Shown: piece by piece, positions 3,417 through 35,212 of the stretch
Layout: each line of letters starts with the position of its first letter
Numbering within the stretch: position 1 is the stretch's first letter
NCBI GenBank assembly: GCA_045641145.1
Contig: JAZUGJ010000073.1
Span: forward strand, 12,846 to 76,845
Direction: 5' to 3'
From: Paludibacteraceae bacterium
GTDB lineage: Bacteria > Bacteroidota > Bacteroidia > Bacteroidales > Paludibacteraceae
DNA: 64,000 bases
The notes under the pieces: generated by a model
The model's database searches: none
Seen by the model: the letters and a program-made list of their open reading frames with translations, nothing else
What the model was told of the DNA's origin: nothing
Translations under genes and position numbers: made by a program

Positions 3417-3419
3417 GCC

Positions 3420-3461
3420 GTGCGCCCCGTCCGTACAATGTATGGGCGTGTGGATTAAAAC
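3420..3461 (+). repeat. solitary type I-C-like CRISPR repeat, degenerate with an enlarged loop, sense to the operon
   Basis: GTGCGCCCC-gtccgtacaatgtat-GGGCGTGTGGATTAAAAC. The 3' 18 nt match the array repeats at 17/18. Ends 19 nt before ATG 3481. Confidence 0.6.
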
Positions 3462-3480
3462 AAACAAAAAAGGAGAAGCC

Positions 3481-3954
3481 ATGTATCTGCTGAACAACTT
3501 AAAAGCAATCGACACCACTTCTGTCGAAGACCTTGAAGAGGTTGTGTCCGAGATTGCGGAGTGCATGAACCAGAACCACCTCGCTTGCCGTTTCCTGCGT
3601 GGTTGGTACGGTATCTCTGCGTTTGATATCGACCACGACCCCGATGTCATTGCTCTTATGAGCATAGGCGGTTACGGCAAGAGTGCAAGAGCAATCGCCG
3701 CCCTCTGCGACTGCTTCGGTCATCACGCTATGTGGTATGACGGAGATTTTCGCCGTGCTACCAATGACGAAATCGAAAGAGAAGTGTACGACATCGCCCG
3801 TTCTGATTGGGACAAGTTCTACCAGAATGTCTTCTCTTTCTTTGATGCCGTCATGCAACAGACCGAGATGGACTTTTCCACCATTTCCGCTATTCTGGAA
3901 GCCATCAGCCTTGATTGGACGGTGGAAGTGCTTGCCAAATTCTGCGGCAAGTAA
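3481..3954 (+). CDS. uncharacterized early protein, paralog family 1, copy C
   Basis: ATG 3481 after AAAGGAGAAG. 157 aa. Family motifs present: VEDLEEVVSEIAECM, CRFLRGWYGISAFDI, DWDKF, WTVEVLAKFCG. Confidence 0.6.
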   Translation: MYLLNNLKAIDTTSVEDLEEVVSEIAECMNQNHLACRFLRGWYGISAFDIDHDPDVIALMSIGGYGKSARAIAALCDCFGHHAMWYDGDFRRATNDEIEREVYDIARSDWDKFYQNVFSFFDAVMQQTEMDFSTISAILEAISLDWTVEVLAKFCGK

Positions 3955-3971: not shown

Positions 3972-4004
3972 GTCACACCCCACATGGGGTGCGTAGATTA
4001 AAAT
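3972..4004 (+). repeat. solitary type I-C-like CRISPR repeat, sense to the operon
   Basis: GTCACACCCCACATGGGGTGCGTAGATTAAAAT (33 nt). Near-identical to array repeat 24609-24641 read on the minus strand. Ends 20 nt before ATG 4025. Confidence 0.8.
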
Positions 4005-16567: not shown

Positions 16568-16598
16568 ATTTGTTCCACACACCTCGTGGGGGTGCTAC
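16568..16598 (-). repeat. degenerate solitary I-C-like repeat in the 5' UTR of gene 16543
   Basis: The minus strand reads GTAGCACCCCCACGAGGTGTGTGGAACAAAT. About 22 of 31 positions match the array repeat consensus (GT.GCACCC....GGTGTGTGGA..AAAT). Ends 24 nt before the ATG. Confidence 0.45.
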
Positions 16599-17798: not shown

Positions 17799-17830
17799 AT
17801 TTTAATCCACGCACCCCGTGCGGGTGCGAC
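17799..17830 (-). repeat. solitary type I-C-like CRISPR repeat in the 5' UTR of gene 17783
   Basis: The minus strand reads GTCGCACCCGCACGGGGTGCGTGGATTAAAAT. It lies between promoter 17871-17899 and the RBS, and ends 15 nt before the ATG. Confidence 0.85.
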
Positions 17831-21927: not shown

Positions 21928-22230
21928 ATGAATGTTCTGAACATCGAAACAAGCGAGATATTTACAGTCAACTTATTCGTCAAGGAAAAAGGCGTGCAAA
22001 AAGCCGTACCTGAAAGCACCCTTTCCGCTATGGTATCCAAATGGCTGAACCAATGGGAGCGGGACGACAAGTACGGCTTCTATAAAACTTTCTGTGACGG
22101 GTTCGACGACATGGTCTACTGGCTCGAAGTGAACGCCGCAAAGAAACTTGGCATCCAAGAAGATGACCTGCATATTCAATGCTACTGCGCCGCCTACTGG
22201 TCGCCTACCCGTGGCATATACAACTTATGA
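21928..22230 (+). CDS. hypothetical protein (plus-strand island)
   Basis: ATG 21928 after GAGGTG. Resembles the previous ORF in layout (....VNL/VTLANV..., SRWAKK/SKWLNQ). Its 3' end overlaps the nrdG 3' end by 6 nt. Confidence 0.5.
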   Translation: MNVLNIETSEIFTVNLFVKEKGVQKAVPESTLSAMVSKWLNQWERDDKYGFYKTFCDGFDDMVYWLEVNAAKKLGIQEDDLHIQCYCAAYWSPTRGIYNL

Positions 22231-22755
22231 TTGCGGCTTTGTGAACTTGGACAGACCGTCATCTTCTTCTTTCCAGAGGATTACCCTGCCAGCATCCAAA
22301 GACTTCTGGACATCAATAAGCCTTTGATTGGAACTGCCCCTAAAGTGCAACTCATAGGATTTTAAGTGTTCCACAAACCGCCCGTCCACAAGCACATCTA
22401 TTGCTCGCAGAAACGCTTTCCATTCTGGGTTATACTCATTCATAATCTCGTCCCATGTGTATCCTGTGTACACCCAGACGGTCTTGCCCTTGTTCTTACA
22501 GGCTCTTGCAAATTTGGCACAATCTACCGCTTGCAGAAAAGGCTCGCCGCCAGAAATGGTAACGCCGTCAAGAAGTGGGTTCAAAGCCATCTTTTCCACA
22601 AGGTCATACGGATTGACTTCCCGACCATCAAGCGTGTTGTGCGTTTCGGGATTATGGCATCCCTTGCAATGGTGGTGGCATCCCTGTACAAAGACCACAT
22701 ACCGCAGTCCGTACCCATCGACAATACTGTCGTTTACCGTGTTAGCTATACGCAT
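22225..22755 (-). CDS. nrdG: anaerobic ribonucleotide reductase activating protein (radical SAM)
   Basis: 176 aa with DSIVDGYGLRYVVFVQGCHHHCKGCHNPETH and TISGGEPF. Confidence 0.9.
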   Translation of the reverse strand: MRIANTVNDSIVDGYGLRYVVFVQGCHHHCKGCHNPETHNTLDGREVNPYDLVEKMALNPLLDGVTISGGEPFLQAVDCAKFARACKNKGKTVWVYTGYTWDEIMNEYNPEWKAFLRAIDVLVDGRFVEHLKSYELHFRGSSNQRLIDVQKSLDAGRVILWKEEDDGLSKFTKPQS

Positions 22756-22788
22756 ATTATCAATCTCCTGTTCTATCCCCGTTCTCGT

Positions 22789-22821
22789 GTTTTAATCCAC
22801 ACACCCCGCACGAGGTGTGAC
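22789..22821 (-). repeat. solitary type I-C-like CRISPR repeat upstream of nrdG
   Basis: The minus strand reads GTCACACCTCGTGCGGGGTGTGTGGATTAAAAC. Ends 33 nt before the nrdG ATG, with the RBS AGGAG in between. Confidence 0.85.
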
Positions 22822-22826
22822 GCTAT

Positions 22827-22865
22827 CTAAAAAGAAAACGCTGTAGCATAGCAACTACAGCGTTT
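22827..22865 (-). terminator. intrinsic terminator between two repeats
   Basis: Minus strand: AAACGCTGTAG-8 nt loop-CTACAGCGTTT followed by TCTTTTT. Confidence 0.6.
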
Positions 22866-22901
22866 CTCCTCGTCCGCCAAAGACATTTTATCCGCATACC
22901 T

Positions 22902-22933
22902 GTTTTAATCCACGCACCCCGTTGGGGTGTGAC
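22902..22933 (-). repeat. solitary type I-C-like CRISPR repeat
   Basis: The minus strand reads GTCACACCCCAACGGGGTGCGTGGATTAAAAC. It is followed by about 35 nt and then the terminator at 22827-22865. Confidence 0.85.
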
Positions 22934-23025
22934 GACAAGGTATGCACCGTCCCACCTGCATGAAACGGCATCCCACATCCAAGAAAGAATATAACACATT
23001 CCAGACGACTTGTCAACGCCCTTTT

Positions 23026-23271
23026 TCAACTTCTTCGTGCATCCACGCTGATGCGGCTCAGACGGCGAAGTTTCTTCAAGAACTCCTCGTATACCTTGTC
23101 CGCTTCTTCTTCTGTCCTCGCATCATTTGCATCGCACATGGAAATCCACGCTTCTGCGGTAAGATACCTCGCATCATCATAGATTGCTCTTATCGTATCG
23201 TAAGTCATGGTGTCATCGGTACTCTCTGGTGTTGTATCGACCAGCTTACCGTCTTTGCTCATCACCACCAT
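23026..23271 (-). CDS. hypothetical protein
   Basis: Start is ATG 23271 or 23262, at the upstream stop. Confidence 0.45.
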   Translation of the reverse strand: MVVMSKDGKLVDTTPESTDDTMTYDTIRAIYDDARYLTAEAWISMCDANDARTEEEADKVYEEFLKKLRRLSRISVDARRS

Positions 23272-23687
23272 CGTATCACCCACCTGTTCTTCACGGATTC
23301 GTCTACCAATTTTTGGAAATGAGCGAAGCAGAAACAATCGCCCTGCCCGATATACCCGTACTTGCCATACAACCGCAAGTCCTTTATGAGGTTTCGGATG
23401 CGGCGGCACATCGGCACAGGTATTTTGCCCTCGGTATCTGGCATGAACAGAAACTCGATAACAGGAGCATCGTTCTCGGTCAGAACGCCATTTTCAAACA
23501 TCTTCGACAGGCGGTCGTTTCCCTCGGTGTCGGATATCGGCGAAACAAGCGATGTCCACTCCTCGTAAAGAATGCCAAACTCTTTGTTTATCAGATAGGC
23601 AATATCCCGCCGAAGCCGATAGAAACCGCTGTAACTCAAATCGTATGAGTGCTGTTTGTTTCTGATGGTTATCCCAATTTTACTCAC
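23262..23687 (-). CDS. hypothetical protein
   Basis: 141-aa ORF. Confidence 0.5.
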   Translation of the reverse strand: MSKIGITIRNKQHSYDLSYSGFYRLRRDIAYLINKEFGILYEEWTSLVSPISDTEGNDRLSKMFENGVLTENDAPVIEFLFMPDTEGKIPVPMCRRIRNLIKDLRLYGKYGYIGQGDCFCFAHFQKLVDESVKNRWVIRWW

Positions 23688-23871
23688 ATCCCCTTAACTC
23701 TTTTCCGCACATTGGGCAGAAGTTTATTCGCACACCTATGCCGTTTCTGCCGCTTCCGTGAATGTCATACCCGTATGCAAACAAGGTGTTTGGAAAACTC
23801 AATGCAATTCCTTTATCGTTTGTTTCTCCAATTACTAATGCTTTTGCTTTGTCACAATATTCGCACATCAT
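23680..23871 (-). CDS. small zinc-ribbon protein
   Basis: 63 aa with CEYC ... CPMC pairs. Confidence 0.45.
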   Translation of the reverse strand: MMCEYCDKAKALVIGETNDKGIALSFPNTLFAYGYDIHGSGRNGIGVRINFCPMCGKELRGCE

Positions 23872-23916
23872 TTCTTCTCATTTCCTTTCTTATTTTTTGG
23901 AGTCTCGGTTTTGTTT

Positions 23917-24108
23917 TCAAATTGTTGAGATTTTATTTGTGTGGTATCTGTTCCAGTCTTTAATTGCAACTTCAAAGCCATGCACTTCGTGAGTTGATGA
24001 ACCTCTCCCGCAAATAGGGCAGGTGAAGCTGATATACTTTTTCTGATAAAGAATATCTGGAAACACACCGCAGGTTTTGCATTTCTCTAATCCCTCAATA
24101 TCGAACAT
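23917..24108 (-). CDS. Lar-like restriction-alleviation family protein (putative)
   Basis: Start at ATG 24108. LEKCKTCG...FTCPICG...FEVAIKDWNRY matches the CxxCG...CxxCG...Ai..WN pattern of Lar-type proteins. Confidence 0.5.
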   Translation of the reverse strand: MFDIEGLEKCKTCGVFPDILYQKKYISFTCPICGRGSSTHEVHGFEVAIKDWNRYHTNKISTI

Positions 24109-24222
24109 AAAGCACCTTTTTTCAGATTGTTGATACATCGTAATCACAGCCGAAATATGTGCCACCGTCATCTCTGAATTTCACTGCAACCTGTGCATCC
24201 TGTGGCATCTTTTTCAGTTCAC

Positions 24223-24252
24223 TTTTTAATCCACTCCTGCATAAAGCGTGAC
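24223..24252 (-). repeat. decayed repeat remnant
   Basis: The minus strand reads GTCACGCTTTATGCAGGAGTGGATTAAAAA. The ends are conserved (GTCAC...GTGGATTAAAA) but the stem is lost. Confidence 0.3.
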
Positions 24253-24409
24253 CAGTTGTCTACATTTTGCGGACAACTGGTTGTTTTTTCAAAAATTGGA
24301 TAATTGGATTCTTAAAATAGTGTTTTACCTCTCGGCTTTTAACCCCAAAACTAACCGCCCCTATTACGGGACAGTAGGTGAGTCGAACACCTGTCTCTAT
24401 TTTTTAATC

Positions 24410-24775
24410 CTTTTAATTCACGCACCCACATGGGGGGACGCAAGAAGACCGCAACAGTCTTGCGACTACATTACTTTTAATCCACGCACCCCATACAGGG
24501 TGTGACCCACGATTCCGGGCGCAGAGGTTGCATTGGCGTTGATTTTTTAATCCACACACCCAGCACGGAGTGTGACTAAAGGACGTGTAACGGCTAATGT
24601 CTGCCGCCATTTTAATCCACACACCCCATGTGGGGTGTGACTTTGTTTCTGGCCGACCACCACACGGTTTCCCGATATTTTAATCCACGCACCCCACGCA
24701 GGGTGCGACTATCGGACGCACCTACTACCCAACCAAGACGAGGTTTTAATCCACACATCCCGTGTGGGATGCGAC
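24410..24775 (-). CRISPR. CRISPR array with type I-C-like repeats: 6 repeats, 5 spacers
   Basis: Repeats lie at 24743-24775, 24677-24709, 24609-24641, 24544-24576, 24474-24506 and 24410-24442, the last being degenerate. Spacers are 33, 35, 32, 37 and 31 nt. The minus-strand repeat reads GTCGCAYCCC..GGG.TG.GTGGATTAAAAY. The degenerate repeat is distal to the cas8c-like gene. Confidence 0.9.
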
Positions 24776-24922
24776 AGCAAACATCAACAAAGCGGGTAGC
24801 ATTGTTTCCCTGTGATTACTGCATGATGCACAGATTTTGCCGAGGGAACGGTCACAATTTACGGTTTCTGTGCGAGAACCGCCGAAAGGTGTAATTTTTC
24901 TTGTGCGAACCTACTGGAGTTT

Positions 24923-26362
24923 TTATGCACACTTGGGGTTCGCATCGAGAACATCCGTGCCGTATCTGTCGTAATTGTACTTACGGAGAACGGCGCAAGC
25001 GACAAACATCATATGCTCACGGACGCTTGTTTTGTCGTAGTCAATCGTGCCGAACTTTGCGAGATTGTGCTGAAGAGCGTTGACCACATCGAACGGGATA
25101 GTACCGCCGTTGACCATAGCACTCATAAGGCGGATGAACACTCGGTTCGTTGCGTGTTTATCGACAACAAACGAGCCGTCCCGATAAGTGCCGTAGGCGT
25201 ACTTTATGATGTCGCTGATGGACGGGGAATCGAAAGTGGTAACATATGTTTCCTTTTTCTTATCCCACACCGCACGATACCAACTGCACTTCTCTTTCCA
25301 GTCACAGACTTTCTTTAAGAAGTCGTATTTCGGAGTTTCAGCGAGGGCGATGATAGAGTCTCTGCCAGTGTTTGCTCTGTAGGAAATGTAGGTCACATTG
25401 TCCTCAATCGTGTTGCGGCGGCAACCGTTAAGGATTTCCCCCAGTTCCCGTCTGTAGTCGGGGAGCGTAGCGCAATGGCTTTCCACAAACTCGCCGGGCA
25501 GACCGATGTTGATGTGTTCGCCGTTGTAGTCCCAAACAAGGGTAACGACATCGTCATAAGTCTTTGCGTAGTTGGTTACTGCCCACTTCAGCAGATTAGC
25601 TGACTTGGATACCGCAACAACGCCAAAGGCGGCATCATCGGCGTTAGGGACACGCATATTGAGCTTTTTGGTAGACTCATTCGAGAACATCGACACGAAA
25701 GAGGGATATTCTCCGTTTTTCGGAAAACCATCGGATGCGATATCCAGTTCCCCAGTGACCTCACAGATGGTCATACGGGATGCAGGGTCGTTTTCGAGCA
25801 GATTTCTGTAATACCGCTCATACACCCGCATAAAGTCCCTATCTTTGTGGGGAAGCGTGTTGCCGATTCTCCAACGGACTAACGACTTGTCGTTGTACAG
25901 TTTGACAGTGTTGCCATCCTTTACCGTGTGAAGTGCGGTAACACCGTCAAGGTCGGAGAGACAAGTGCCGCCCATGACATACTTGTATACCGCATCAACA
26001 ATGGGCGTGGTATATTCCGAATCGTGCCATGCGGAAAGTTTTCCGATATAATCCGCATGGTGAGCAGTTCCCATATCAGCGACACAACGCAACTGGTCTG
26101 CAAAGCCCTTGGCACACACATTACTGGTAACTCGTTCAGAATCACAGGTACAAGGCACGATTGTGTACCTGTCCCAGTTGCCTCTGACATCGGGGACGTG
26201 GACAGCGTTCACAAAATGCCCATCCCAGTCGATTTCGATTTCCAGACTTGCGTGAACCGTAGCGTGGTACACAGGGGCAAGCGGCGACATACCATCGTAG
26301 TACTCGCCGACAATGGATTCCAACTTGTCATAGGAACGGACTGCCTTGCCGATGATGTCCAT
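24923..26362 (-). CDS. cas8c: Cas8c (Csd1)-like large subunit lacking the C-terminal small-subunit domain
   Basis: Start at ATG 26362 after AAAGGAAG. 479 aa. The layout follows Csd1: MDIIGKAVRSYDKL, RYTIVPCTCDSERVTSNV, SFVSMFSNES..NADDAAFGVVAVSKSANLL, NVTYISYRANTGRDSI, RLMSAMVNGGTIPFDVV, ACAVLRKYNYDRYGTDVLDAN-stop. Similarity was judged from the remembered family consensus. Confidence 0.65.
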   Translation of the reverse strand: MDIIGKAVRSYDKLESIVGEYYDGMSPLAPVYHATVHASLEIEIDWDGHFVNAVHVPDVRGNWDRYTIVPCTCDSERVTSNVCAKGFADQLRCVADMGTAHHADYIGKLSAWHDSEYTTPIVDAVYKYVMGGTCLSDLDGVTALHTVKDGNTVKLYNDKSLVRWRIGNTLPHKDRDFMRVYERYYRNLLENDPASRMTICEVTGELDIASDGFPKNGEYPSFVSMFSNESTKKLNMRVPNADDAAFGVVAVSKSANLLKWAVTNYAKTYDDVVTLVWDYNGEHINIGLPGEFVESHCATLPDYRRELGEILNGCRRNTIEDNVTYISYRANTGRDSIIALAETPKYDFLKKVCDWKEKCSWYRAVWDKKKETYVTTFDSPSISDIIKYAYGTYRDGSFVVDKHATNRVFIRLMSAMVNGGTIPFDVVNALQHNLAKFGTIDYDKTSVREHMMFVACAVLRKYNYDRYGTDVLDANPKCA

Positions 26363-26366
26363 GCAG

Positions 26367-26618
26367 TCACTTCCTTTCGCAGTCCAGCCCAAGGGCACGG
26401 AGTTCGTCCACCACGGAGTTATATCCGTCACGCCACTCGGAAGTGGGGATGTCAGCCGCAGAATAGCCGTTTGCGTTTGCGGTGAACAGTGCGTCCATAA
26501 GGATGTTTCCCGCAAGAGCAACCACATCCTCATCCTGTACGCCATAGGTCAGCTTCATGACCGCAAGTACCCGTCCTACTTGATACGAGTTACGGGCGAT
26601 ACGCTCTTTTTCTGTCAT
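26367..26618 (-). CDS. small protein, possible detached Cas11c-like small subunit
   Basis: ATG 26618 after AAAGGAG. 83 aa. It lies 4 nt upstream of the cas8c-like start. The N-terminus ...ARNSYQVGRVLAVMKL resembles the AYxLGRLFAxLE segment that opens the Cas11-like C-terminal domain of canonical Cas8c. Confidence 0.35.
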   Translation of the reverse strand: MTEKERIARNSYQVGRVLAVMKLTYGVQDEDVVALAGNILMDALFTANANGYSAADIPTSEWRDGYNSVVDELRALGLDCERK

Positions 26619-26671
26619 TGTTATTCTCCTTTCATTGTCGGAACACTCGGCACAACGCCTTGTTCTCTTAA

Positions 26672-26700
26672 AGTATACCACCGCCAAAGTGTTGTGTCAA
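26672..26700 (-). promoter_or_regulatory. sigma70-type promoter with extended -10 for the cas operon
   Basis: Minus strand: TTGACA-17 nt-(TGG)TATACT, with an A/T-rich tract upstream. Confidence 0.65.
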
Positions 26701-26720
26701 GTGTTTTTTTTGAAAAGTTT

Positions 26721-27062
26721 TTATTCTGCCACTCTGTAGCTTGTAGCGAGCATATCAATGATTTCGGCAAGGCAATCAATCTGCCCATCCGACATACGCC
26801 CGATAGTAGCAAGGATGCGGACACGCTTTTCCTTTGTGGACTCTCTGCGGAAACTGACCTCGGTCTTTTCATCCTCGGCAAAGTAATCCATGCCGATGCC
26901 GATAAACTCGCAGTACTTTGCAAGGGTGTTGTAACTGGGGTTGCGTTTGCCGTTTTCCAGAAGCGAGATGCCGTTCTGGTGGATACCAAGTTCCCTCATG
27001 ATATCGTACTGGGAAAGCCCTCTGTCGATGCGCAGTTTACGCAGTTTCTCGTTCACGGTCAT
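26721..27062 (-). CDS. XRE-family HTH transcriptional regulator
   Basis: MTVNEKLRKLRIDRGLSQYDIMRELGIHQNGISLLENGKRNPSYNTLAKY is a canonical Cro/CI-type HTH. Confidence 0.8.
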   Translation of the reverse strand: MTVNEKLRKLRIDRGLSQYDIMRELGIHQNGISLLENGKRNPSYNTLAKYCEFIGIGMDYFAEDEKTEVSFRRESTKEKRVRILATIGRMSDGQIDCLAEIIDMLATSYRVAE

Positions 27063-27403
27063 CAGCAGTCACCTCTCTCGATTAAATCAGACGGGCTTTC
27101 CACCTTGTCCTCGCACAGAGTAACCATCTCGAAATCCTCGATGGGCAGGTTGACTTCCTTTTTCAGCTTGCCAGAGAAGCCGTCCAAGTTGAATTCTTTC
27201 TCGATAACGGTGGTTACATAGTTGTCGGGAAACCGCTTGTACCATCCCAGAAAATCGTCATTGGTTATTACGCTTCTGATGGCGGCTAAAACATCTGGGG
27301 TAACGGCATAAAACGGAGAGGTATGGTTGCCGCCGCAGACAGGGGTGCGGACAAGGTATAAATCCTTGTATTCCTTGTGGCGGAAAAACTTGAGTGGCTT
27401 CAT
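27062..27403 (-). CDS. hypothetical protein
   Basis: 113-aa ORF that overlaps both flanking genes by 1 nt. Confidence 0.5.
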   Translation of the reverse strand: MKPLKFFRHKEYKDLYLVRTPVCGGNHTSPFYAVTPDVLAAIRSVITNDDFLGWYKRFPDNYVTTVIEKEFNLDGFSGKLKKEVNLPIEDFEMVTLCEDKVESPSDLIERGDC

Positions 27404-27906
27404 CAGCGGTCACCCCCCACGATAAACGGCTCGCCGCCCTTTCTGCGGATGCGGTAGTCCACCTCGACAAGGAAGTGGATGGGACTGGCAGGGACTGTTG
27501 CGCCGTGCAGGTCGGTGAAGTCATCGTCCATGTAGGCGAGGATGTCCTTGCAGTCGGCTTCGTCCAGAACGGACATACCGTCCAAGAGCTTGCCGAAGCG
27601 GAAAGCCTCTGGGTTCACCACCTCGTAAGAGGCGGCGTTGATGGCGTAGCAAGCCATGAAGAAAACCTTTTCCTTGTTCATAGTATCATTCTCCTTTTTA
27701 GTTTCGGGCATCTCTCTGTTGTACTCTTCGGGTATCTTTCTGTCCCAACACTCTTTGCAGTATAAGCCGCCTAACCAACACAGAGCGAAGTCACAATCGT
27801 GAAACTGCTCGTACCTGTAAATATGGGGACAGGCGAAACATCCACCCACATATTTATCATCCACATACTCTGGGCGTTCCCGTTTCAGTTTTTCTCTAAA
27901 GGTCAT
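27403..27906 (-). CDS. Cys-rich MTFREKLK-family protein, copy D, fused to an extra C-terminal domain
   Basis: Start at ATG 27906 (MTFREKLKRERPEYV...GGCFACP...CKECWDRKIPEE). The reading frame continues about 90 aa further. An internal start at MNKEK is possible. Confidence 0.5.
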   Translation of the reverse strand: MTFREKLKRERPEYVDDKYVGGCFACPHIYRYEQFHDCDFALCWLGGLYCKECWDRKIPEEYNREMPETKKENDTMNKEKVFFMACYAINAASYEVVNPEAFRFGKLLDGMSVLDEADCKDILAYMDDDFTDLHGATVPASPIHFLVEVDYRIRRKGGEPFIVGGDR

Positions 27907-28124
27907 TTCTTTTCCCCTGCCTTTTCGGGCATCTCTCTGTCCCAACATTCTTTACACTTTATCCCAATTGACCAACACATGATGCAGTCGTGTGTGCAAT
28001 TAGGAAGTGTCAGCGGTGCGGAAGACTCGTATCCGTAATCATGCGGGCATAAGTTGCATCCACCCACATATTTACTGCCAACGCACTCTGGGTGTTCCTG
28101 CTTCAGCTTCTCTCTAAAGGTCAT
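27903..28124 (-). CDS. Cys-rich MTFREKLK-family protein, copy C
   Basis: ATG 28124 with an ATGA overlap. MTFREKLKQEHPECV..GGCNLCP..CKECWDREMPE. Confidence 0.55.
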   Translation of the reverse strand: MTFREKLKQEHPECVGSKYVGGCNLCPHDYGYESSAPLTLPNCTHDCIMCWSIGIKCKECWDREMPEKAGEKK

Positions 28125-28333
28125 CTTCTGGCATCCTCTTCTGGCACTTCCCTGTCCCAACAAGCTCTGCACAGCAACCCATCGTTGATTCCGTAATCCC
28201 CTTTCACATCAAGGCAGTGCGCAGGGTAATCAGCCTCGAAACCAAAGGTGACGGGACAGCCGTAGCACCCGCCCATGAACTCGTCACCGACCTCTGCGGG
28301 ATACTTCAGCTTCAGTTTTTCTCTAAAGGTCAT
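28121..28333 (-). CDS. Cys-rich MTFREKLK-family protein, copy B
   Basis: MTFREKLKLKYPAEV..GGCYGCP..CRACWDREVPE. Confidence 0.55.
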   Translation of the reverse strand: MTFREKLKLKYPAEVGDEFMGGCYGCPVTFGFEADYPAHCLDVKGDYGINDGLLCRACWDREVPEEDARR

Positions 28334-28785
28334 TCTTTTTCCCCCTTGTATGGTTCAGGCATCGGCATCCATGCCATACCGTCCACGATTTCACCGTAGC
28401 TCTCAAGGTAACACATACTACCGTCCATTCCAAAAACATCTGACGAAACAAACCCGTTATAGGAAACGAGAATCTCCTGACCGTCATCGGGGAGCTTGCC
28501 GTCAATAATCTCACGGGCTTCGTTCAGTTCCCGCTCCTCATAAGAAGAAGCTTCCCACTCTTCATCGGTCATCTTTCTTATGCGCCACACGTTCCACCCC
28601 ATTACGGTTGGAGCGGCTTCCAGAGCCTTTTCTGCGGCTTCGATGCCGTAGTCTTCCGGGTCTTCCCATACCCATTTGCCAAGTCCGTAGCAGGTTTCTG
28701 CACAGTACATATTGGCTTCATAGTCACCACGCCCATGTAAGGCAACCAGTGCCTCCTTGAGAGCATCTGCATCAATTAGTCTCAT
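28330..28785 (-). CDS. DUF551-like phage protein
   Basis: Start at ATG 28785 (MRLIDADALKEAL). The C-terminus is GMAWMPMPEPYKGE. Confidence 0.5.
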   Translation of the reverse strand: MRLIDADALKEALVALHGRGDYEANMYCAETCYGLGKWVWEDPEDYGIEAAEKALEAAPTVMGWNVWRIRKMTDEEWEASSYEERELNEAREIIDGKLPDDGQEILVSYNGFVSSDVFGMDGSMCYLESYGEIVDGMAWMPMPEPYKGEKE

Positions 28786-28969
28786 CGTCATCCCCCTTTT
28801 CGGGCATCTCCCTGCTCCAGCATTCATGACAGGTGATTGCGTCATTGTCGCATTCGGTGGGTCTTGCGGCTTCGTATCCGAAAACACTCGGACAGCTAAG
28901 ACAGCCACCTCCGAAAACATCGCCAACATATTGAGGATGTTCCTTTGCGAGTCGTTCTCTAAATGTCAT
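28772..28969 (-). CDS. Cys-rich MTFREKLK-family protein, copy A
   Basis: ATG 28969 after GAGGGAG. MTFRERLAKEHPQYV..GGCLSCP..CHECWSREMPE. Confidence 0.55.
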   Translation of the reverse strand: MTFRERLAKEHPQYVGDVFGGGCLSCPSVFGYEAARPTECDNDAITCHECWSREMPEKGDDDETN

Positions 28970-29027
28970 AACACTCCCTCTTACATTCCGGGCATCCATC
29001 AGATGCACTTTTCGTTGCCTGTGCTAT

Positions 29028-29056
29028 TATACTACCACGGGCATTTTCTCTTGTCA
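29028..29056 (-). promoter_or_regulatory. sigma70-type promoter with extended -10
   Basis: Minus strand: TTGACA-17 nt-(TGG)TAGTAT. A TTTCGCAATTTTGCAAAA motif sits just upstream at 29064-29081. Confidence 0.65.
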
Positions 29057-29125
29057 ACCCCCGATTTCGCAATTTTGCAAAATTTTTTTGCGGCAAACTT
29101 TTTTATATGAATTGCAATAAAATTC

Positions 29126-29153
29126 TTGACACATAGAAAAGAAGTGCTATAAT
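29126..29153 (+). promoter_or_regulatory. sigma70-type promoter with extended -10 driving a solitary repeat
   Basis: TTGACA (29126-29131), 16 nt, TGCTATAAT (-10 at 29148-29153). The repeat starts about 13 nt after the predicted TSS. Confidence 0.7.
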
Positions 29154-29172
29154 GTATGTATACCAGTTAAAG

Positions 29173-29204
29173 GTCGCATCCCATGCTGGTGCGTGGATTA
29201 ATAT
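29173..29204 (+). repeat. solitary type I-C-like repeat, plus orientation, with a variant 3' end
   Basis: GTCGCATCCCATGCTGGTGCGTGGATTAATAT. No credible ORF lies downstream, and the terminator at 29257-29300 follows. Confidence 0.75.
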
Positions 29205-29256
29205 GAGGAAGCCCGTGCCTCTCTCGCACAGTACAAGCCGTACAAGACCGTATTGT

Positions 29257-29300
29257 AAAATGCCGCTCTGCAAGGTCAGTTCCCTGCAGGGCGGCATTTT
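29257..29300. terminator. bidirectional intrinsic terminator
   Basis: AAAATGCCGCTCTGCAAGG-loop-CCCTGCAGGGCGGCATTTT. A long imperfect palindrome flanked by A and T runs. A second small hairpin lies at 29306-29325. Confidence 0.65.
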
Positions 29301-29405
29301 ACATTTGTAACACATTTTGTGTTACATCTTTAATTTCCCGACCTCGTCATCGTAGATTGATAATGGCTTGTTGGCTTTCAGTTTTTCCATGCTCTGTTTC
29401 TTGGT

Positions 29406-29438
29406 CTTTTAATCCACACATCCCGTGTGGGATGTGAC
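29406..29438 (-). repeat. solitary type I-C-like CRISPR repeat
   Basis: The minus strand reads GTCACATCCCACACGGGATGTGTGGATTAAAAG. It differs from the leader-proximal array repeat (24743-24775) at 2 positions. Confidence 0.85.
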
Positions 29439-29528
29439 TTCCCGTGTGGAAGTATATCCAACATTTTCACACCATATACACACCGTCCACGAAAAATACT
29501 ACAGACGCTATCTCATACAATGTCATTT

Positions 29529-29711
29529 TCAATCTCCGTTTCTGTCCGTGAGGCTTCGCACTAACTGTACCACACAAAGCACAAGCGAAGCTACGCCCGC
29601 AACCAGAAATGCTACGAGCGCAGTTGCCGACAGTGCCGCCGTAAACGCAATTGCAATCGGGACAAGAAGTACCAAGCCTATGATGCCAAAAAGTATATCC
29701 AGCACTTCCAC
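29529..29711 (-). CDS. small membrane protein
   Basis: 60 aa, GTG start after AGGTGA. Two hydrophobic helices (ILFGIIGLVLLVPIAIAF..LVAFLVAGVASLVLCVV). Confidence 0.45.
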   Translation of the reverse strand: MEVLDILFGIIGLVLLVPIAIAFTAALSATALVAFLVAGVASLVLCVVQLVRSLTDRNGD

Positions 29712-29714
29712 ACT

Positions 29715-29918
29715 TCACCTGCCGTTTTTGATTTGCTCAAGTCTGGGACGGCACACAGCGAGAATGGTCTCCGCAACCTCAATCGCCGTCTTTAGGTCAA
29801 GGTCAATCTCCGCCACAGAACACCCATCTTTCACGACCAGCGATAATTCATCGCCAGTCATCACCACTTCAATAGCCTCGCCGTCATCGTAGTCCCATCT
29901 GTCAGAACGAACCATCAT
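29715..29918 (-). CDS. hypothetical protein
   Basis: 67 aa, with a strong RBS AAAGGAG before ATGATG. Confidence 0.5.
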   Translation of the reverse strand: MMVRSDRWDYDDGEAIEVVMTGDELSLVVKDGCSVAEIDLDLKTAIEVAETILAVCRPRLEQIKNGR

Positions 29919-29953
29919 AACACTCCTTTCATTGTGCCTTGCTTATATGCCCT

Positions 29954-30041
29954 CTGTACGCCCTCTGTGCGCCGTTTTCCAGTTAGCAATATAAAATTAC
30001 ACTCCATGTGCTACAAAACGCCTGTACGCCCTCTGTGCGCC
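29954..30041. repeat. pair of 20-nt perfect direct repeats flanking a weak promoter
   Basis: CTGTACGCCCTCTGTGCGCC occurs at 29954-29973 and at 30022-30041. Between them, the minus strand reads TTGTAG-17 nt-TATATT (30016..29988). Confidence 0.5.
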
Positions 30042-30087
30042 CTGTATGAGCGTTTTAGTGTAACGGCACACCTAACACGCTGTTTCA

Positions 30088-30119
30088 GAAAAAAGAACAG
30101 GGCGGCATTTCTGCCGCCC
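30088..30119 (-). terminator. intrinsic terminator
   Basis: Minus strand: GGGCGGCA-GAAA-TGCCGCCC followed by TGTTCTTTTTT, 10 nt after the stop at 30130. Confidence 0.65.
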
Positions 30120-30129
30120 ACCCTGCGCT

Positions 30130-30690
30130 TTAGAACTCAAAGGGGAACAGGGACTCGCCGTCCTCGTTGAGGCACTTGTAGGTGCGCAGGATAGTGCCAA
30201 TCCGCTGGTCGTAGGACTTCACGGAAACCTTGTCGTAAGCCCAAGAACCGACAAGGTGGCGGTTTCCCTTGCCCATGTAGTCGCCACCGCCCAGACCGTT
30301 ACCGACAGCGGTCAGCATAACGAGGGGGGAGTAGCCGCCGCAGGTAAGGAAAACATATTCCTTGCGGTCATGGTTGACAGCAATCTCGGCAAAGGGCATG
30401 CCAGTCTTGACGGTCACGATTTCCGTTGCGTTCTTGCAGAAAGAACGAGCTACGGGAGTACCCATCTTCTCGGCGGCAGAACCGCCGCTCTCCGGGTGGG
30501 CGTAATCGCCGATGGTGGCGATGCGGACAGGCTTGCCAGCCTCGTGTACGAAGTTCGTGAGAGCGTTCGAGAACTGGAGGTTGGTGGCTATCTCGCACAG
30601 CTTGAGGCCAACCCAGTCACCGTTGATGACATCAGGCATGGTGTAGCGGGTAGTGCCGTTCTTGACGATAGTGAAGTAATACTGTCCCAT
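30130..30690 (-). CDS. hypothetical protein
   Basis: 186-aa ORF with a strong RBS AAAGGAG and its own promoter. Confidence 0.55.
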   Translation of the reverse strand: MGQYYFTIVKNGTTRYTMPDVINGDWVGLKLCEIATNLQFSNALTNFVHEAGKPVRIATIGDYAHPESGGSAAEKMGTPVARSFCKNATEIVTVKTGMPFAEIAVNHDRKEYVFLTCGGYSPLVMLTAVGNGLGGGDYMGKGNRHLVGSWAYDKVSVKSYDQRIGTILRTYKCLNEDGESLFPFEF

Positions 30691-30753
30691 GGTTATTCTC
30701 CTTTAAGTAAACAGATTTAATTTGGTATCGAGCCACTTGCTCGGTACAAGTAT

Positions 30754-30782
30754 AATATACCATGCCATGTACCGCTTGTCAA
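30754..30782 (-). promoter_or_regulatory. sigma70-type promoter with extended -10
   Basis: Minus strand: TTGACA-17 nt-(TGG)TATATT. Confidence 0.65.
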
Positions 30783-30833
30783 CACTTTTTGTAAAAAAAT
30801 TTATTTCTTAATTGTTCCTATATTTTGAGCAAA

Positions 30834-30878
30834 CAAAAAAATCCGTTCCTACTCTCGCATATAAGAACGGATTTTTTT
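30834..30878. terminator. bidirectional intrinsic terminator
   Basis: AAAAAAA-TCCGTTC-loop-GAACGGA-TTTTTTT. Confidence 0.65.
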
Positions 30879-31006
30879 GTCAATAAGGCTTCCAGCCTGC
30901 TACCGATACGGCTGGCATGGTCGAGTTCTACCCTCTAACCACGGCTAATATATCATATAAAGCGTTTGATGTCAAGATGGATTCTGTTAGCGGGCGAGGG
31001 ATGTTT

Positions 31007-31747
31007 TTAATAGTCAAATTCTTCTGGATGTTCCTGTTCGTAACGGCGTTCGAGATACCCATCCATCTCTTCGTCAAGTAGATTCAATCTTTTCCACTCA
31101 TCGTTGCGGGCTTTCACGACACCAATGGCATCTCGATAGTCTTTTGCAACGGCTTTAAGCTCTGGGTGAGTTTCACTTTTTTCTTCTATCAGAGAAGTCA
31201 ATTTTGCGAAGTCGTCAACGGTATATGTTCTTTTTACACCTAAATCACTCACTCGTATCCCATACGACTTTGAAAGAGTATCAAGTATTTCATTGACTCT
31301 ACTATTCGCAGTGCTACCAGCTTTAATTTTAGTATCTTTCACTTGTCTAATGCAACGGAGAACTGGTTCGATTGCCCCTGTGGAGTGCAAGGAATCATAA
31401 AATGAGTCTCTTTCTTTGTACGCATTTCTCACATCATCCAAACTGCCATTTCGTGCCACCTGACCAACTGGCTCTAAATAAAGTGCTTTTTTTGCAATAT
31501 CCCTTAGTTCTGACGGAACATTTCTTTTGATTGCATCGCCAATAGCTTTCTTATAAGTCGCTTTTACCTCTGCAATATCACGAGCCGCCCCACGGCTCAC
31601 TCCGATTTCTCCACCAGATTTCTTCTTCTCGCCAGCCTTGCGCTTGCCGTTAGCAACACCTTTGTTATATCCCCACTTGCCGCCGTCCTGACGAGCGTCC
31701 AAACGCAGTTGGCGGCGGACATAGTAATTGATAATACTCTGTTTCAT
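31007..31747 (-). CDS. hypothetical protein
   Basis: 246-aa ORF directly downstream of the endolysin, with a basic N-terminus. Confidence 0.5.
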   Translation of the reverse strand: MKQSIINYYVRRQLRLDARQDGGKWGYNKGVANGKRKAGEKKKSGGEIGVSRGAARDIAEVKATYKKAIGDAIKRNVPSELRDIAKKALYLEPVGQVARNGSLDDVRNAYKERDSFYDSLHSTGAIEPVLRCIRQVKDTKIKAGSTANSRVNEILDTLSKSYGIRVSDLGVKRTYTVDDFAKLTSLIEEKSETHPELKAVAKDYRDAIGVVKARNDEWKRLNLLDEEMDGYLERRYEQEHPEEFDY

Positions 31748-31759
31748 GTTTGCACCTCT

Positions 31760-33547
31760 TTACTTTTCTAACATACCCAATCTTCCGAGTACGGTTATAA
31801 ATTCTTCTCTGGTCATAACATCGTGGGGGCGTGTGCCATCAACAACACCGAGAGAAGTTGCTTTATCCCAACTGGGCTTTGCCCATGTGCTGGCTTCTTT
31901 AGTTTCGTTTAAGAAAGCACGATACTTGTTCCCGATTGTAGCAGATTGTTTATTATCAATCTTCTCGGTAAGTTCGTCAATCGTCATGTCCAGTTCCTCC
32001 TTGCTGTTTGTCACAACCTCGTTTTTCGGCTCGACTTTCGGCTCGGTCTTCCCGCTCTGTCTTAACATCTCGGCGGCGACACGAATTTTGAACTTTGCCC
32101 ATTCGCCGTCACTTCCGCTATCGCCGTTCCAGCCGATAATTCCGGGGCAGTTGCCCGTGATGAAAGTTTGTCCGTTCTGGCGCATCATGAACATACCAGT
32201 CGGGACGGTAACGCAGGTAACATCGGTTTTCCGTTCCGTCATCTCTGTATCGTAACGAACGGAGTAGTTACTGCCAGAGTAACGGACGGTATCATAGCTC
32301 CTGTCCGCACTTCCTGTAGCTCCAAGACGGCATCTTTTTCCACGAGTGGCAAATAATGCCTGTACGAAGTCAAGATTGTCCTGCTCACTACTGAAATACA
32401 TACTGCCCTCGACACTTCCGTCAGCAAGGAAAATCTCATCGAAAAACGCATTGAACTGCTCCTCGTTCATCTCGAACAGATTCCAAGAAAAGCGTTTGTC
32501 GGTAAGCCACTTCTCGCATTCTTGACAATGGCGAACTCCCCAGACACGGATAAAGGTACTGCCGTCCTTTTCGTAAGGAACGACATCGTACTTCAACTCA
32601 AGTGCTTTCAGTATCTCGATAACACGGTCTATCTTGCGTTGCTTCTTGAAGTGGAACTCAATACCTGTAGGGTTCTTTGCATCTTTAGAGCCGATGTAGT
32701 GACCGTCAGCTTGCACCCACACCAGAAAACGCAGATAGTCGATTGATAATGGCAATCCAGCCCCGTCATAGTCGCCAGTTACTTTGAGTTCGTAACTGGT
32801 TTTCTTTCCGAGCATATCGCCCCAATCCTTTATTTTCCACGGGGCGTTTGAGCCATCGGTAGCACGGTACAGAGTTCGATGGTCTTTGGTAGCCTCGTAT
32901 CCCCGCCGTGCGATTACAGTATCCACCCACGGAGTGAGCTTGTCAATGACACGCCCCCATACCACTCTGTCTTTGTCATAATCATAGGTCATAACCTCGT
33001 CCCCGATGCGGATTGCACCGAGGTTTTTCCAGCCGTTTCTGGTCAGCAATTCCGTCTTGTCAATCGGCAACGGCAACTTGCCCGTCACATCGTAATGCCG
33101 ATACAGTTTGTCGATACCAAGATTGTGCTTCAGCAGAAGATGCGCCGCAAGTTCAACAGCGTTCTGGATAACCGCATTTGTGAAGTAGTAGCTACTATCA
33201 TTCGGAGCGGTCATCTTGTGGATAAGATTGCTACTGCACATCTCAACGCTGATGCTGTTGTTGTTCTTGATAACTCCGTACATAGAACCGCCACGGGTAT
33301 AGTACTTCGAGCCGCCAACCGCACCTGTGTACACATTATCATTAGGCGAGTACCGCCAGATACTGCCGTCATCCACTACATAATCAGCAGATGCTTTTTC
33401 CTTTGAGGCGTTCCACATAGCACAGACATTATACGCCACGCCCTTTTTGGACTGCGTTCCTGCTGTGTAGTGCATCACAACATATTTGATGTTGCCGCTT
33501 CGATTCCATATTTTGTTTGCACCAGAAAATTGGTTAATCGGCAACAT
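31760..33547 (-). CDS. endolysin: N-acetylmuramoyl-L-alanine amidase (Amidase_2/PGRP type) interrupted by an intein, with a C-terminal SLH-like wall-binding repeat
   Basis: N-terminal amidase motifs (YVVMHYTAG, SVEMC, RHYDVTGK) resume at CPGIIGW after about 309 aa. The C-terminal WAKPSWDKATSLGVVDG..MTREEFITVLGRL is SLH-like. Confidence 0.85.
   Translation of the reverse strand: MLPINQFSGANKIWNRSGNIKYVVMHYTAGTQSKKGVAYNVCAMWNASKEKASADYVVDDGSIWRYSPNDNVYTGAVGGSKYYTRGGSMYGVIKNNNSISVEMCSSNLIHKMTAPNDSSYYFTNAVIQNAVELAAHLLLKHNLGIDKLYRHYDVTGKLPLPIDKTELLTRNGWKNLGAIRIGDEVMTYDYDKDRVVWGRVIDKLTPWVDTVIARRGYEATKDHRTLYRATDGSNAPWKIKDWGDMLGKKTSYELKVTGDYDGAGLPLSIDYLRFLVWVQADGHYIGSKDAKNPTGIEFHFKKQRKIDRVIEILKALELKYDVVPYEKDGSTFIRVWGVRHCQECEKWLTDKRFSWNLFEMNEEQFNAFFDEIFLADGSVEGSMYFSSEQDNLDFVQALFATRGKRCRLGATGSADRSYDTVRYSGSNYSVRYDTEMTERKTDVTCVTVPTGMFMMRQNGQTFITGNCPGIIGWNGDSGSDGEWAKFKIRVAAEMLRQSGKTEPKVEPKNEVVTNSKEELDMTIDELTEKIDNKQSATIGNKYRAFLNETKEASTWAKPSWDKATSLGVVDGTRPHDVMTREEFITVLGRLGMLEK
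32150..33076 (-). mobile_element. intein with a LAGLIDADG homing-endonuclease domain inside the endolysin
   Basis: Spans residues about 158-466. Block A-like IDKTELLTRNGWKNLGAIRIGDEV, block B TKDH, two LAGLIDADG-type motifs (LVWVQADGHY and IFLADGSVEG), block F/G DVTCVTVPTGMFMMRQNGQTFITGN, then extein CPG. The boundaries are approximate. Confidence 0.7.
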
Positions 33548-33591
33548 AAAACCACCCCCTATAAATAAATTTACTTTTTTCTAAAAAACTC

Positions 33592-33620
33592 TTGACATAA
33601 TAACAACCATATGGTACTAT
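33592..33620 (+). promoter_or_regulatory. sigma70-type promoter with extended -10 driving a solitary repeat
   Basis: AAAAAACTC-TTGACA (33592-33597), 17 nt, TGGTACTAT (-10 at 33615-33620). It lies on the strand opposite the flanking late genes. Confidence 0.7.
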
Positions 33621-33658
33621 GTATGTACCGCAAAAAACCACACGGTTTTTCTAATCGT

Positions 33659-33691
33659 GTCGCACCCCGCATAGGGTGCGTGGATTAAAAC
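33659..33691 (+). repeat. solitary type I-C-like CRISPR repeat, plus orientation
   Basis: GTCGCACCCCGCATAGGGTGCGTGGATTAAAAC. A full-consensus repeat about 32 nt after the predicted TSS. Confidence 0.9.
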
Positions 33692-33699
33692 TGTGAGCC

Positions 33700-33724
33700 T
33701 TGTGCGGGGCGTGTGGCTTAAAAG
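33700..33724 (+). repeat. partial second repeat (3' half only)
   Basis: TTGTGCGGGGCGTGTGGCTTAAAAG lies 8 nt after the full repeat and resembles ...GGGTGCGTGGATTAAAAC. Confidence 0.4.
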
Positions 33725-33730
33725 AAAAAA

Positions 33731-33765
33731 GCGAGGGGAACGGTGAACCCCTCGCTTTTCTTTTC
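33731..33765 (+). terminator. intrinsic terminator
   Basis: GCGAGGGG-loop-CCCCTCGC followed by TTTTCTTTTCT. Confidence 0.7.
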
Positions 33766-33786
33766 TCAACTAACGATTACCAGAAA

Positions 33787-33990
33787 TTAAGAGAACAGGT
33801 CAGCCAGAGTCTTTTTCTTGTCCAACTGATAACCACGCATGATTTTACGCCACTCGTTGTATTCTTTGGAGTAGTCCTGCCAACCGTTCTGGATAGCGAA
33901 CTGCAAAGAAGCGGAATCGGCATCAATACCCAGCTTGTTGCCCAGAGCGGCGATACCTTTTCTGTTCTGATAGAAACGATTCTCGGTCAT
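33787..33990 (-). CDS. hypothetical protein
   Basis: 67-aa ORF between the holin and the endolysin. Confidence 0.45.
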   Translation of the reverse strand: MTENRFYQNRKGIAALGNKLGIDADSASLQFAIQNGWQDYSKEYNEWRKIMRGYQLDKKKTLADLFS

Positions 33991-34074
33991 AACAAAGCCC
34001 CTTTCCCGCCAGATGGCGTATTTTTATAAATCATACACAAAGCGGTAAAGCCATGTAATGAAAATAAATGATTT

Positions 34075-34275
34075 TTATTTTTCGGCACTCTCAACCTCTG
34101 GCAGACCGCCGAGGGAAGTGAGGAGTGACAGAACCGCCGCAAGGGCGGCAGAGCCAACGACCACTTGCCAATCGACTGCGGTGATGGTAACGCCCGCAGG
34201 AAGCAGAGCCGCCGCAGTCTGACAGAAAGTCTTGACGGCACGGATAAGAGCCGCCTTAAACCAAATCATCGTCAT
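34075..34275 (-). CDS. putative holin
   Basis: 66 aa. RAVKTFCQTAAALLPAG plus a second hydrophobic helix and a charged C-terminus. It lies next to the endolysin. Confidence 0.55.
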   Translation of the reverse strand: MTMIWFKAALIRAVKTFCQTAAALLPAGVTITAVDWQVVVGSAALAAVLSLLTSLGGLPEVESAEK

Positions 34276-35212
34276 CTAACACCATTCCTTTCCTTTGCAT
34301 GAAGTATGTAGCTTTTTCACGAGGGATATAATGCCATCTGCATTGCCAGTACTTATCCCCGCTCTCAAGAGCGTCCTTTATCCCCATTACGGATACCTTG
34401 TTTGTGGCAATGCGTTCTGGGGAACTGCAAACAACACAGATGATATGCGTGTCCTCGTCCACGCCCACTATCCATTCCGACCTATCGCAGGGGGCATAAA
34501 AATTGCGGAATGTATCATCATCAAACCCGAAGATTATCCATCGGCACAGACTTGGGAACATATTGACAAGGAACTCGAAATCGGTGCTGGTCATAATCAT
34601 ATAGTCCTTTTTGTTATCATCTTTCTTGAAGTTGCTTTTCGCAAGAACTTCTTTCGTGATGTTTCGCCCGATTGCTTTACTCGCTTCTTCTTGCGTTCTG
34701 TACGCTCCAAAGAACCGCATATTCTCGTCAAGTGCTATTATCGAGTCCGTTACCTTTCGATGTTTATCAAACAGGTCTGACATCTCCAAGTACTGCTTTC
34801 TCCATTCTTCATGGAATGCAACGAAGTCAAAATTCTCAAGCATCGTGAATGCAAGGAAACGATTCTTGGAAGTTATCTTTCTGCATCCAATTTTTTCCAA
34901 AGCCTCTGGGTAAGAACGGAAAAATGAGATGAACCCGTTCCCGTGCAACACAATCGGTTTCAGCTTCGGGTACTTCGGCGGTTTGCCAATATCTTCCAGT
35001 TTGAATGCCTGTTTGAAAATCAGCATCCCCTCGAAGTCTACCGTTCCGCACCGCTCAAGTTGAGAAGCAAGGCGATACTTCATGCTAACCTTTTCTGGAA
35101 AGCACTCGGAAAGAAAGTCATGCAAGTTCTCATATAGTTTCGGCTTGCGAGAACCATCTCTCGGAACGGCGATAACCTGTGTATTGAAACGGGAACATCT
35201 CACTTTTTCCAT
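34256..35212 (-). CDS. hypothetical protein with repeated NUMOD-like DNA-binding modules
   Basis: The start is uncertain (ATG 35212 or 35257). Three similar modules recur: FFRSYPEALEKIGCRKI, FGAYRTQEEASKAIGRNI and VVCSSPERIATNKVSV. They are reminiscent of homing-endonuclease DNA-binding repeats. No catalytic motif was seen. Confidence 0.4.
   Translation of the reverse strand: MEKVRCSRFNTQVIAVPRDGSRKPKLYENLHDFLSECFPEKVSMKYRLASQLERCGTVDFEGMLIFKQAFKLEDIGKPPKYPKLKPIVLHGNGFISFFRSYPEALEKIGCRKITSKNRFLAFTMLENFDFVAFHEEWRKQYLEMSDLFDKHRKVTDSIIALDENMRFFGAYRTQEEASKAIGRNITKEVLAKSNFKKDDNKKDYMIMTSTDFEFLVNMFPSLCRWIIFGFDDDTFRNFYAPCDRSEWIVGVDEDTHIICVVCSSPERIATNKVSVMGIKDALESGDKYWQCRWHYIPREKATYFMQRKGMVLDDDDLV

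Follow-up and report, generated by a model that had tools for sequence, protein, structure and literature searches.

A solitary type I-C repeat unit in a phage-like genome: candidate repeat decoy or decaying relic of a 5'-UTR repeat

Introduction

Viral solitary repeat units (SRUs) that lie directly downstream of promoters have been described as Racrs, or RNA anti-CRISPRs, which form aberrant Cas subcomplexes (PMC10651486). RacrIC1 is co-transcribed with acrIC5, and RacrIF1 binds Cas6f together with 8-9 Cas7f along its tail (PMC10651486). The type I-C repeat is processed by Cas5 (PMC10651486, Extended Data Fig. 9 legend), and a promoter within 250 bp upstream served as a criterion in the selection of SRUs (PMC10651486). 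Type I-C arrays have also been reported among the Cracrs (Liu et al., bioRxiv 10.1101/2024.10.29.618823), and the same preprint classes viral units of a repeat plus a tail that have no PAM-proximal match of at least 9 bp to a CreA/R spacer as 'likely Racrs' (10.1101/2024.10.29.618823). The PAM of type I-C is TTC (10.1101/2022.06.15.496202).

Here, we examine a promoter-repeat-terminator unit in a phage-like window, that is, in the whole 64,000-nucleotide stretch of DNA analysed, which encodes a tail-fibre repeat protein, an amidase, a RecD2-type helicase, a DUF3310 protein and an NrdG-like activase. A preliminary description had read the unit as a crRNA-like guide that ends in a terminator instead of a repeat, with a repeat decoy as the fallback. 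By comparing the locus with two relatives, we trace the supposed spacer to a lost gene and propose, as the likeliest readings, that the unit is a repeat decoy, should it act at all, or a decaying relic.

Results

A lone repeat between a consensus promoter and two terminators

The relatives that frame the comparison are L045, a 5.7-kb contig that was reached via a homologue of the neighbouring 186-aa protein and that shares 83-92% nucleotide identity with window positions 25962-30928, and L076. The unit opens with a plus-strand sigma-70 promoter at 29126-29153, TTGACA-16-TGcTATAAT, which has an extended -10 element, agrees with the consensus at 12/12 positions, and is both the best-scoring promoter-like site and the sole 12/12 match in 22000-35000. 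L045 shares the sequence from the -35 element to about +10 without a difference, and there the promoter serves an intact gene for a 100-aa protein. Transcription is predicted to start near 29160 and to run through a 13-nt leader (29160-29172, plus strand), which is common with L045 up to ACCARTTA, before entering the repeat. The arrangement proposed at the outset, an extended -10 promoter with a start about 13 nt ahead of the repeat, thus stands, and the promoter ends 19 nt before the repeat, within the distance used to select Racr candidates.

The repeat itself, GTCGCATCCCATGCTGGTGCGTGGATTAATAT, occupies 29173-29204 on the plus strand and has 0 mismatches to a degenerate type I-C repeat pattern for which the window contains 4 sites against 0.09 expected, so that its earlier assignment to the I-C family holds by pattern match. 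It stands alone in a phage-like window and outside any array: there is no 3' repeat, the nearest other copy lies 200 nt away on the opposite strand, and a terminator follows the tail where a canonical array would have a repeat. The tail (29205-29253) comprises about 49 nt of non-coding sequence. Beyond it, the long palindromic terminator seen earlier is present as a 21-bp hairpin with an A-tract and a T-tract at 29254-29303, a predicted bidirectional intrinsic terminator that is shared with a convergent minus-strand unit whose solitary repeat lies at 29407-29438. A second terminator-like plus-strand hairpin, TGTAACACATTTTGTGTTACA with a T-rich tail, follows at 29306-29326 and is 100% conserved in L045 and L076. 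Folding of the whole transcript gives z = -5.1 relative to shuffled sequences. The loop and inner stem of the larger hairpin are inverted relative to both L045 and L076 (reverse-orientation match at 29254-29298).

Although the repeat clearly belongs to the I-C family in sequence, its predicted structure is compromised. The canonical stem, with arms at 29175-29180 and 29188-29193, has 6 bp including one G-U pair and a predicted energy of -6.3 kcal/mol, which makes it the weakest canonical hairpin among the well-formed copies. A competing hairpin shifted by 6 nt downstream, in which 29181-29186 pairs with 29191-29196 and the Cas5c cleavage site is buried, is predicted at -9.6 kcal/mol and leaves the canonical pairing a probability of 0.01. 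Most other repeat copies of the phage are predicted to adopt the canonical fold at -12 to -15 kcal/mol with a probability near 1. How closely the unit resembles the repeat of its host can be judged against candidate hosts only.

The 11-nt handle, TGGATTAATAT (29194-29204), is altered, as had been noted: it departs at one position from the repeat consensus of the phage (TGGATTAAAAn) and at two from the bacterial I-C form (TGGATTGAAAy). The change from …AAAAn to …AATAT sits at the junction of a 5' deletion described below, and a side effect of this deletion is a simpler explanation for the altered handle than adaptation. The homologous repeat in L076 is identical at 27/32 positions and has the same loop, CCCATGC; three of the four differences in the stem keep the pairing, and one breaks the loop-closing pair. 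The repeat is absent from L045, which contains no I-C repeat anywhere.

The tail as a remnant of a small gene

The segment that had been called spacer-like is homologous to the middle of an intact open reading frame. Positions 29204-29251 on the plus strand (..EEARASLAQYKPYKTV..), 48 nt in all, are 89.6% identical to a gene in L045 (E 1e-12) and correspond to approximately codons 45-60 of a gene for a small acidic protein. L045 has the same promoter and terminators around this intact 100-aa ORF, which is preceded by a good RBS. Relative to L045, 153 nt of the window locus, comprising the RBS and about 45 codons, have been replaced by 34 nt that include the repeat, and a further 131 nt of coding sequence have been deleted 3' of the remnant. 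The inversion in the terminator hairpin coincides with this 3' deletion.

In L076, the homologous repeat lies directly 5' of the RBS of an intact gene, in its 5' UTR, and the encoded protein is a homologue of the lost gene product with 65% amino-acid identity. The three related genomes thus present three states of one locus: the gene alone, the gene with a repeat in its 5' UTR, and a repeat followed by a remnant of the gene. On the strength of this homology, the tail is almost certainly a pseudogene relic and neither an acquired nor a designed spacer. Of the original claim that some 52 nt without a credible ORF follow the repeat, the non-coding character stands, at about 49 nt, while the spacer-like character gives way to that of a coding-gene remnant.

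The two intact copies (L045 1750-2052, minus strand; L076 52-363, plus strand) each encode an acidic protein of 100-103 aa with a net charge of about -15, and a dN/dS of 0.29 between them indicates that the gene is under purifying selection. The gene has its own consensus promoter and terminator and is oriented opposite to its neighbours. Its product has no match in Pfam, PHROG or the PDB, its AlphaFold model has a pLDDT of 49, and it may be an anti-defence protein.

On the other side of the shared terminator, the convergent repeat at 29407-29438 has taken the place of 133 nt of an 87-aa ORF. L045 has this ORF intact; in the window, a C-terminal remnant of 22 codons is left. This repeat, together with about 40 nt of flanking sequence, is 100% identical in L076.

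Searches for a target of the tail

For the tail, in which the part that a guide would use reads GAGGAAGCCCGT, we looked for PAM-flanked matches. A TTC-flanked seed of at least 9 nt was absent both from the window and from loci L071, L072 and L065 of candidate hosts, whose cas3-proximal promoter lies outside the scanned DNA; the window also held none of at least 8 nt, and the host cas5-cas1 region of L071/L072 held one 8-nt TTC-flanked match (L072) and none of at least 9 nt. Within the window, the tail had no other match with up to 3 mismatches, and partial matching of the tail and the array spacers stayed at chance level (best 22/35, no PAM). One 11-nt seed match on the minus strand at 15120 has a CCA flank in place of a PAM, with about 0.12 such matches expected. 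Neither a full-length match in IMG/VR, searched with every 6th position free, nor a BLAST match in INPHARED was found for the tail. The sole extended match that these searches of the window, the candidate-host cas loci, IMG/VR and INPHARED returned was the orthologous gene in L045, where the flanking trinucleotide is CTT. At 49 nt and with no TTC-flanked protospacer found in these data, the tail differs from the spacer of a canonical crRNA, and the idea of a guide-like crRNA that the preliminary description had favoured is not borne out.

Repeats elsewhere in the phage and in candidate hosts

The window contains about 16 I-C-like repeat copies, all of them co-directional with local transcription. 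Over 14 copies, 93.7% of the cells in the 7-bp stem are paired, and 2 of the pairs show compensatory changes. This upkeep of the hairpin and the common direction with transcription argue for a function of the phage repeat family at the RNA level, as do the stem differences between the window and L076 copies, most of which preserve pairing.

Six of the copies form a mini-array at 24411-24776 on the minus strand. They are all mutually different, yet the hairpin is kept and the stems covary; the five spacers between them measure 34, 36, 33, 38 and 33 nt, and have no target in the window or in INPHARED, nor, for the two that were scanned against it, in IMG/VR. The mini-array lies directly downstream of a minus-strand gene at 24923-26362 for a homologue of Cas8c (Csd1; Pfam 4e-30), of 479 aa from its likely start. 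The protein is 25-32% identical to residues 1 to about 466 of the bacterial Cas8c of about 600 aa and falls about 130 aa short at the C-terminus; the N-terminal part of the L045 version is 98.5% identical, and a word search returned no close relative. No cas5, cas7, cas4 or cas1 is detectable within the window. The Cas8c-like protein could be a dominant-negative or re-purposed large subunit of Cascade.

Two further promoter-repeat-terminator units are present, at 22835-23016 on the minus strand, where a 36-nt tail is followed by a 13-bp terminator in a crRNA-like geometry, and at 33592-33760 on the plus strand, where a good repeat, 2 nt, a degenerate repeat and a terminator follow one another. 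Solitary repeats also occupy the interval that separates a stop codon or promoter from the RBS and start codon that follow, at 3415-3461 and 3972-4003 on the plus strand and at 16568-16598, 17800-17830 and 22790-22821 on the minus strand. These five to six repeats are placed 16-34 nt 5' of the start codons of ordinary phage genes, among them that for the NrdG-like radical-SAM activase, and unrelated phages in IMG/VR (L005, L032) show this repeat-RBS-ATG layout as well. The layout suggests Cas5c-dependent processing, regulation or sponging of mRNA.

Rumen Lachnospiraceae MAGs carry I-C arrays in which the repeat matches the phage copy at 33659 with 1 mismatch in 28. The handle reads ...GGATTGAAA in the bacterial I-C arrays that we fetched and ...GGATTAAAA in most phage copies; the copies at 29173 (GGATTAATA), 3972 (AGATTAAAA), 16568 (GGAACAAAT) and 33693 (GGCTTAAAA) deviate from the latter. 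In the bacterial arrays L046-L075, ATTAAAA accounts for one exact-pattern match per locus (two in L070) among many handle matches of the GGATTRAAW type, and in a genome-wide repeat scan every ATTAAAA-type repeat was a lone variant within an ATTGAAA array. The ATTAAAA form is common to IMG/VR phages with I-C repeats and may be a phage-specific handle variant. The genome-wide scan pinned down no host array identical to the phage repeats, and no spacer in the fetched host loci matches the window.

Other repetition in the window concerns genes and promoters. Four tandem minus-strand paralogues at 27403-28969 encode a small Cys-rich protein (MTFREKLK...GGC..CP...) with no match in Pfam or PHROG, and their 5' ends are 64-76% identical in nucleotide sequence; three paralogous plus-strand genes at 2435-3954 (a MYLxNN... 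family of 117-157 aa) are separated by promoters or repeats; and a 58-nt promoter module with an AT-rich upstream part occurs three times, at 2325-2382, 2960-3017 and 33563-33620. Blastn of positions 28000-31000 against INPHARED phages returned no relatives, Rfam at gathering thresholds and a tRNA scan returned nothing over the window, IMG/VR searches that started from the Cas8c-like protein, the amidase or the 186-aa neighbour returned nothing, and the same held for the conserved promoter and second-hairpin sequence against JGI metagenomes and IMG/VR.

Discussion

The states of this locus in three genomes suggest how a repeat could have come to stand alone. We propose that a repeat was once situated in the 5' UTR of an accessory gene that was self-contained, having a promoter and a terminator to itself. 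In the window lineage, one deletion took the RBS and about 45 codons and another the 3' part of the gene, and the promoter, the 13-nt leader, the repeat, the 48-nt remnant and the terminator are what is left. By analogy with described Racrs, the unit then probably serves, by a modest balance of the evidence, as a decoy for host Cas5c and Cas7c. Its consensus promoter should still yield an abundant RNA that spans approximately 29160 to 29305, some 145 nt. Host Cas5c, provided that it recognises the weakened repeat, would cleave this RNA at the 3' base of the stem (29193/29194) and remain on the 11-nt handle, and Cas7c would polymerise over the tail of about 49 nt, in approximately 8 subunits, up to the terminator hairpin. 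The resulting off-size, non-targeting Cascade-like complex would titrate Cas proteins away from phage-targeting crRNAs, as in the Racr mechanism. The phage would express about 16 repeat copies, this unit among them, and since the repeat of the unit is the most degraded of the well-formed ones, the unit may contribute little and be decaying. The fallback of the preliminary description, another repeat decoy, accordingly survives as the best functional guess, with the reservations that the repeat is weakened and that a relic is a rival.

That rival is serious precisely because the repeat is degraded. The unit could be a pseudogenised accessory-gene cassette in mid-decay, whose elements persist because the deletions are recent and whose RNA has no role, an explanation that we regard as possible if rather doubtful. 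It accommodates the derivation of the tail from a gene that suffered two deletions, as well as the inversion of the terminator loop, and it draws on the same features that count against a decoy, namely the weakest canonical hairpin among well-formed copies, with the shifted hairpin favoured, and a substituted handle. The greater divergence of the repeat from its L076 homologue, while the adjacent minus-strand repeat is identical there, fits relaxed constraint on the plus-strand copy, and the remnant has diverged from L045 just as far as its flanks have (about 10%) and so gives no sign of special constraint. Mere decay sits less well with a promoter that is still a perfect consensus, with two intact terminators, with the preservation of pairing at three of four stem differences from L076, and with the retention of the two other promoter-repeat-terminator units, which suggests that the architecture is useful. 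These intact signals for expression, namely the 12/12 promoter with its TG and the pair of terminators, count for a decoy, as do the precedent of viral solitary repeats directly downstream of promoters and, as a sign of host pressure, the Lachnospiraceae repeat that differs at only one position in 28 from another SRU of this phage. The comparison of origin and retention involves two relatives only, L045 and L076, from which selection for retention after gene loss is not demonstrable.

A guide function, in which the Cas5c-cleaved handle and tail would load Cascade and direct it to a partially matching target, is much less probable than either a decoy or a relic, and we consider it quite unlikely. 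The targets would be a host cas or toxin promoter, repressed in the manner of CreR or Cracr RNAs, or sibling phages that retain the intact gene, which would amount to interviral exclusion. The architecture of one psi-repeat, a psi-spacer and a rho-independent terminator is that of CracrVA1 (10.1101/2024.10.29.618823), the phage appears to use guides, having its own Cas8c-like protein and five-spacer mini-array, and the tail matches the intact L045 gene at 31/35 positions with a perfect 12-nt PAM-proximal stretch. That match, however, follows from the shared ancestry of the locus in the two genomes rather than from spacer acquisition and is flanked by CTT in place of the I-C PAM; the L076 copy of the gene is mismatched within the seed; the tail is 49 nt long compared with 33-38 nt for the spacers in the phage's own array; and the repeat is structurally weakened, in addition to the absence of a TTC-flanked seed or a full-length match from the searches described above. 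A guide might instead have been born in place, through insertion of the repeat and deletion of the 5' part of the gene, with a hybrid Cascade of host Cas5c and Cas7c and the truncated Cas8c-like protein of the phage binding or excluding sibling phages that carry the intact gene; the truncated protein may in that case prefer a different PAM. Such a guide would serve competition between viruses and would owe nothing to spacer acquisition, and we judge it very improbable. Least credible of all, to the point of being negligible, is a small protein gene in which GAGGA acts as the RBS of a 31-aa ORF (GTG 29215) or in which a 35-aa ORF begins at ATG 29203. GAGGA does lie 5 nt upstream of GTG 29215, and other repeats in this phage precede an RBS and start codon, but the ORF crosses the 21-bp terminator hairpin to a stop at 29308-29310, beyond the likely end of the transcript, and its frame is not that of the ancestral gene and is matched in neither L045 nor L076; the ancestral frame has a TAA immediately upstream of the remnant and no start codon. 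We rejected this reading since the ORF spans the terminator and is unconserved, and likewise rejected a leader or attenuator role, as no plus-strand gene lies downstream.

Taken alone, the unit is one more candidate type I-C RNA anti-CRISPR; it belongs to a known kind, the viral I-C solitary repeat units that are Racr candidates, and is of modest interest in itself. What the three genomes add is a route from a 5'-UTR repeat to a stand-alone promoter-repeat-terminator RNA gene, along with the lesson that the 'spacer-like' tails of such units can be accidental relics, which calls for caution in screens that predict guide-like viral RNAs by architecture alone. More remarkable is the context, in which about 16 diversified I-C repeats, many of them between a stop codon and the next RBS, accompany a solo truncated Cas8c and a mini-array.

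Among described systems, virus-borne mini-arrays in interviral conflict (PMC11656645) resemble the unit in that its tail matches a gene of a close relative (31/35, L045). They differ in that this unit has no second repeat and matches an orthologous locus by descent, with CTT at the PAM position; the genuine mini-array of this phage is a separate element at 24411-24776. With CracrVA1 (10.1101/2024.10.29.618823), the unit shares the layout of crRNA-like regulators, a repeat-like and a spacer-like element followed by a rho-independent terminator. Cracr and CreR-CreA RNAs are defined by a match of 9-10 or more PAM-proximal nucleotides to a cas or creT promoter or to a CreA/R spacer, whereas none was found here in the DNA searched, and the spacer-like element of this unit is a remnant of phage coding sequence. 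By the rule of the Cracr preprint, the lack of a PAM-proximal match of at least 9 nt in our searches would place the unit on the Racr side.

Compared with the Racrs (RacrIF1 and RacrIC1; Camara-Wilpert et al. 2023, PMC10651486), which are known to act, the unit is described here from its sequence, and Cas binding and inhibition of interference would be expected of it if it acts at all. Its canonical hairpin is weakened and its handle altered; its repeat preceded a gene instead of following one, and that gene has since been deleted; and whereas Racr SRUs have been described without cas association, this one has a Cas8c-like gene and a mini-array at a distance of 2.6-4.7 kb. The likenesses are nonetheless close. 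As in RacrIC1, the repeat is type I-C-like and originally shared one transcript with a small accessory gene, in the manner of the acrIC5-racrIC1 bicistron; as in RacrIF1, with its 8-9 Cas7f, a single-stranded tail could take a Cas7 coat; and as in both, a single phage-borne repeat mimic follows a strong promoter with no array.
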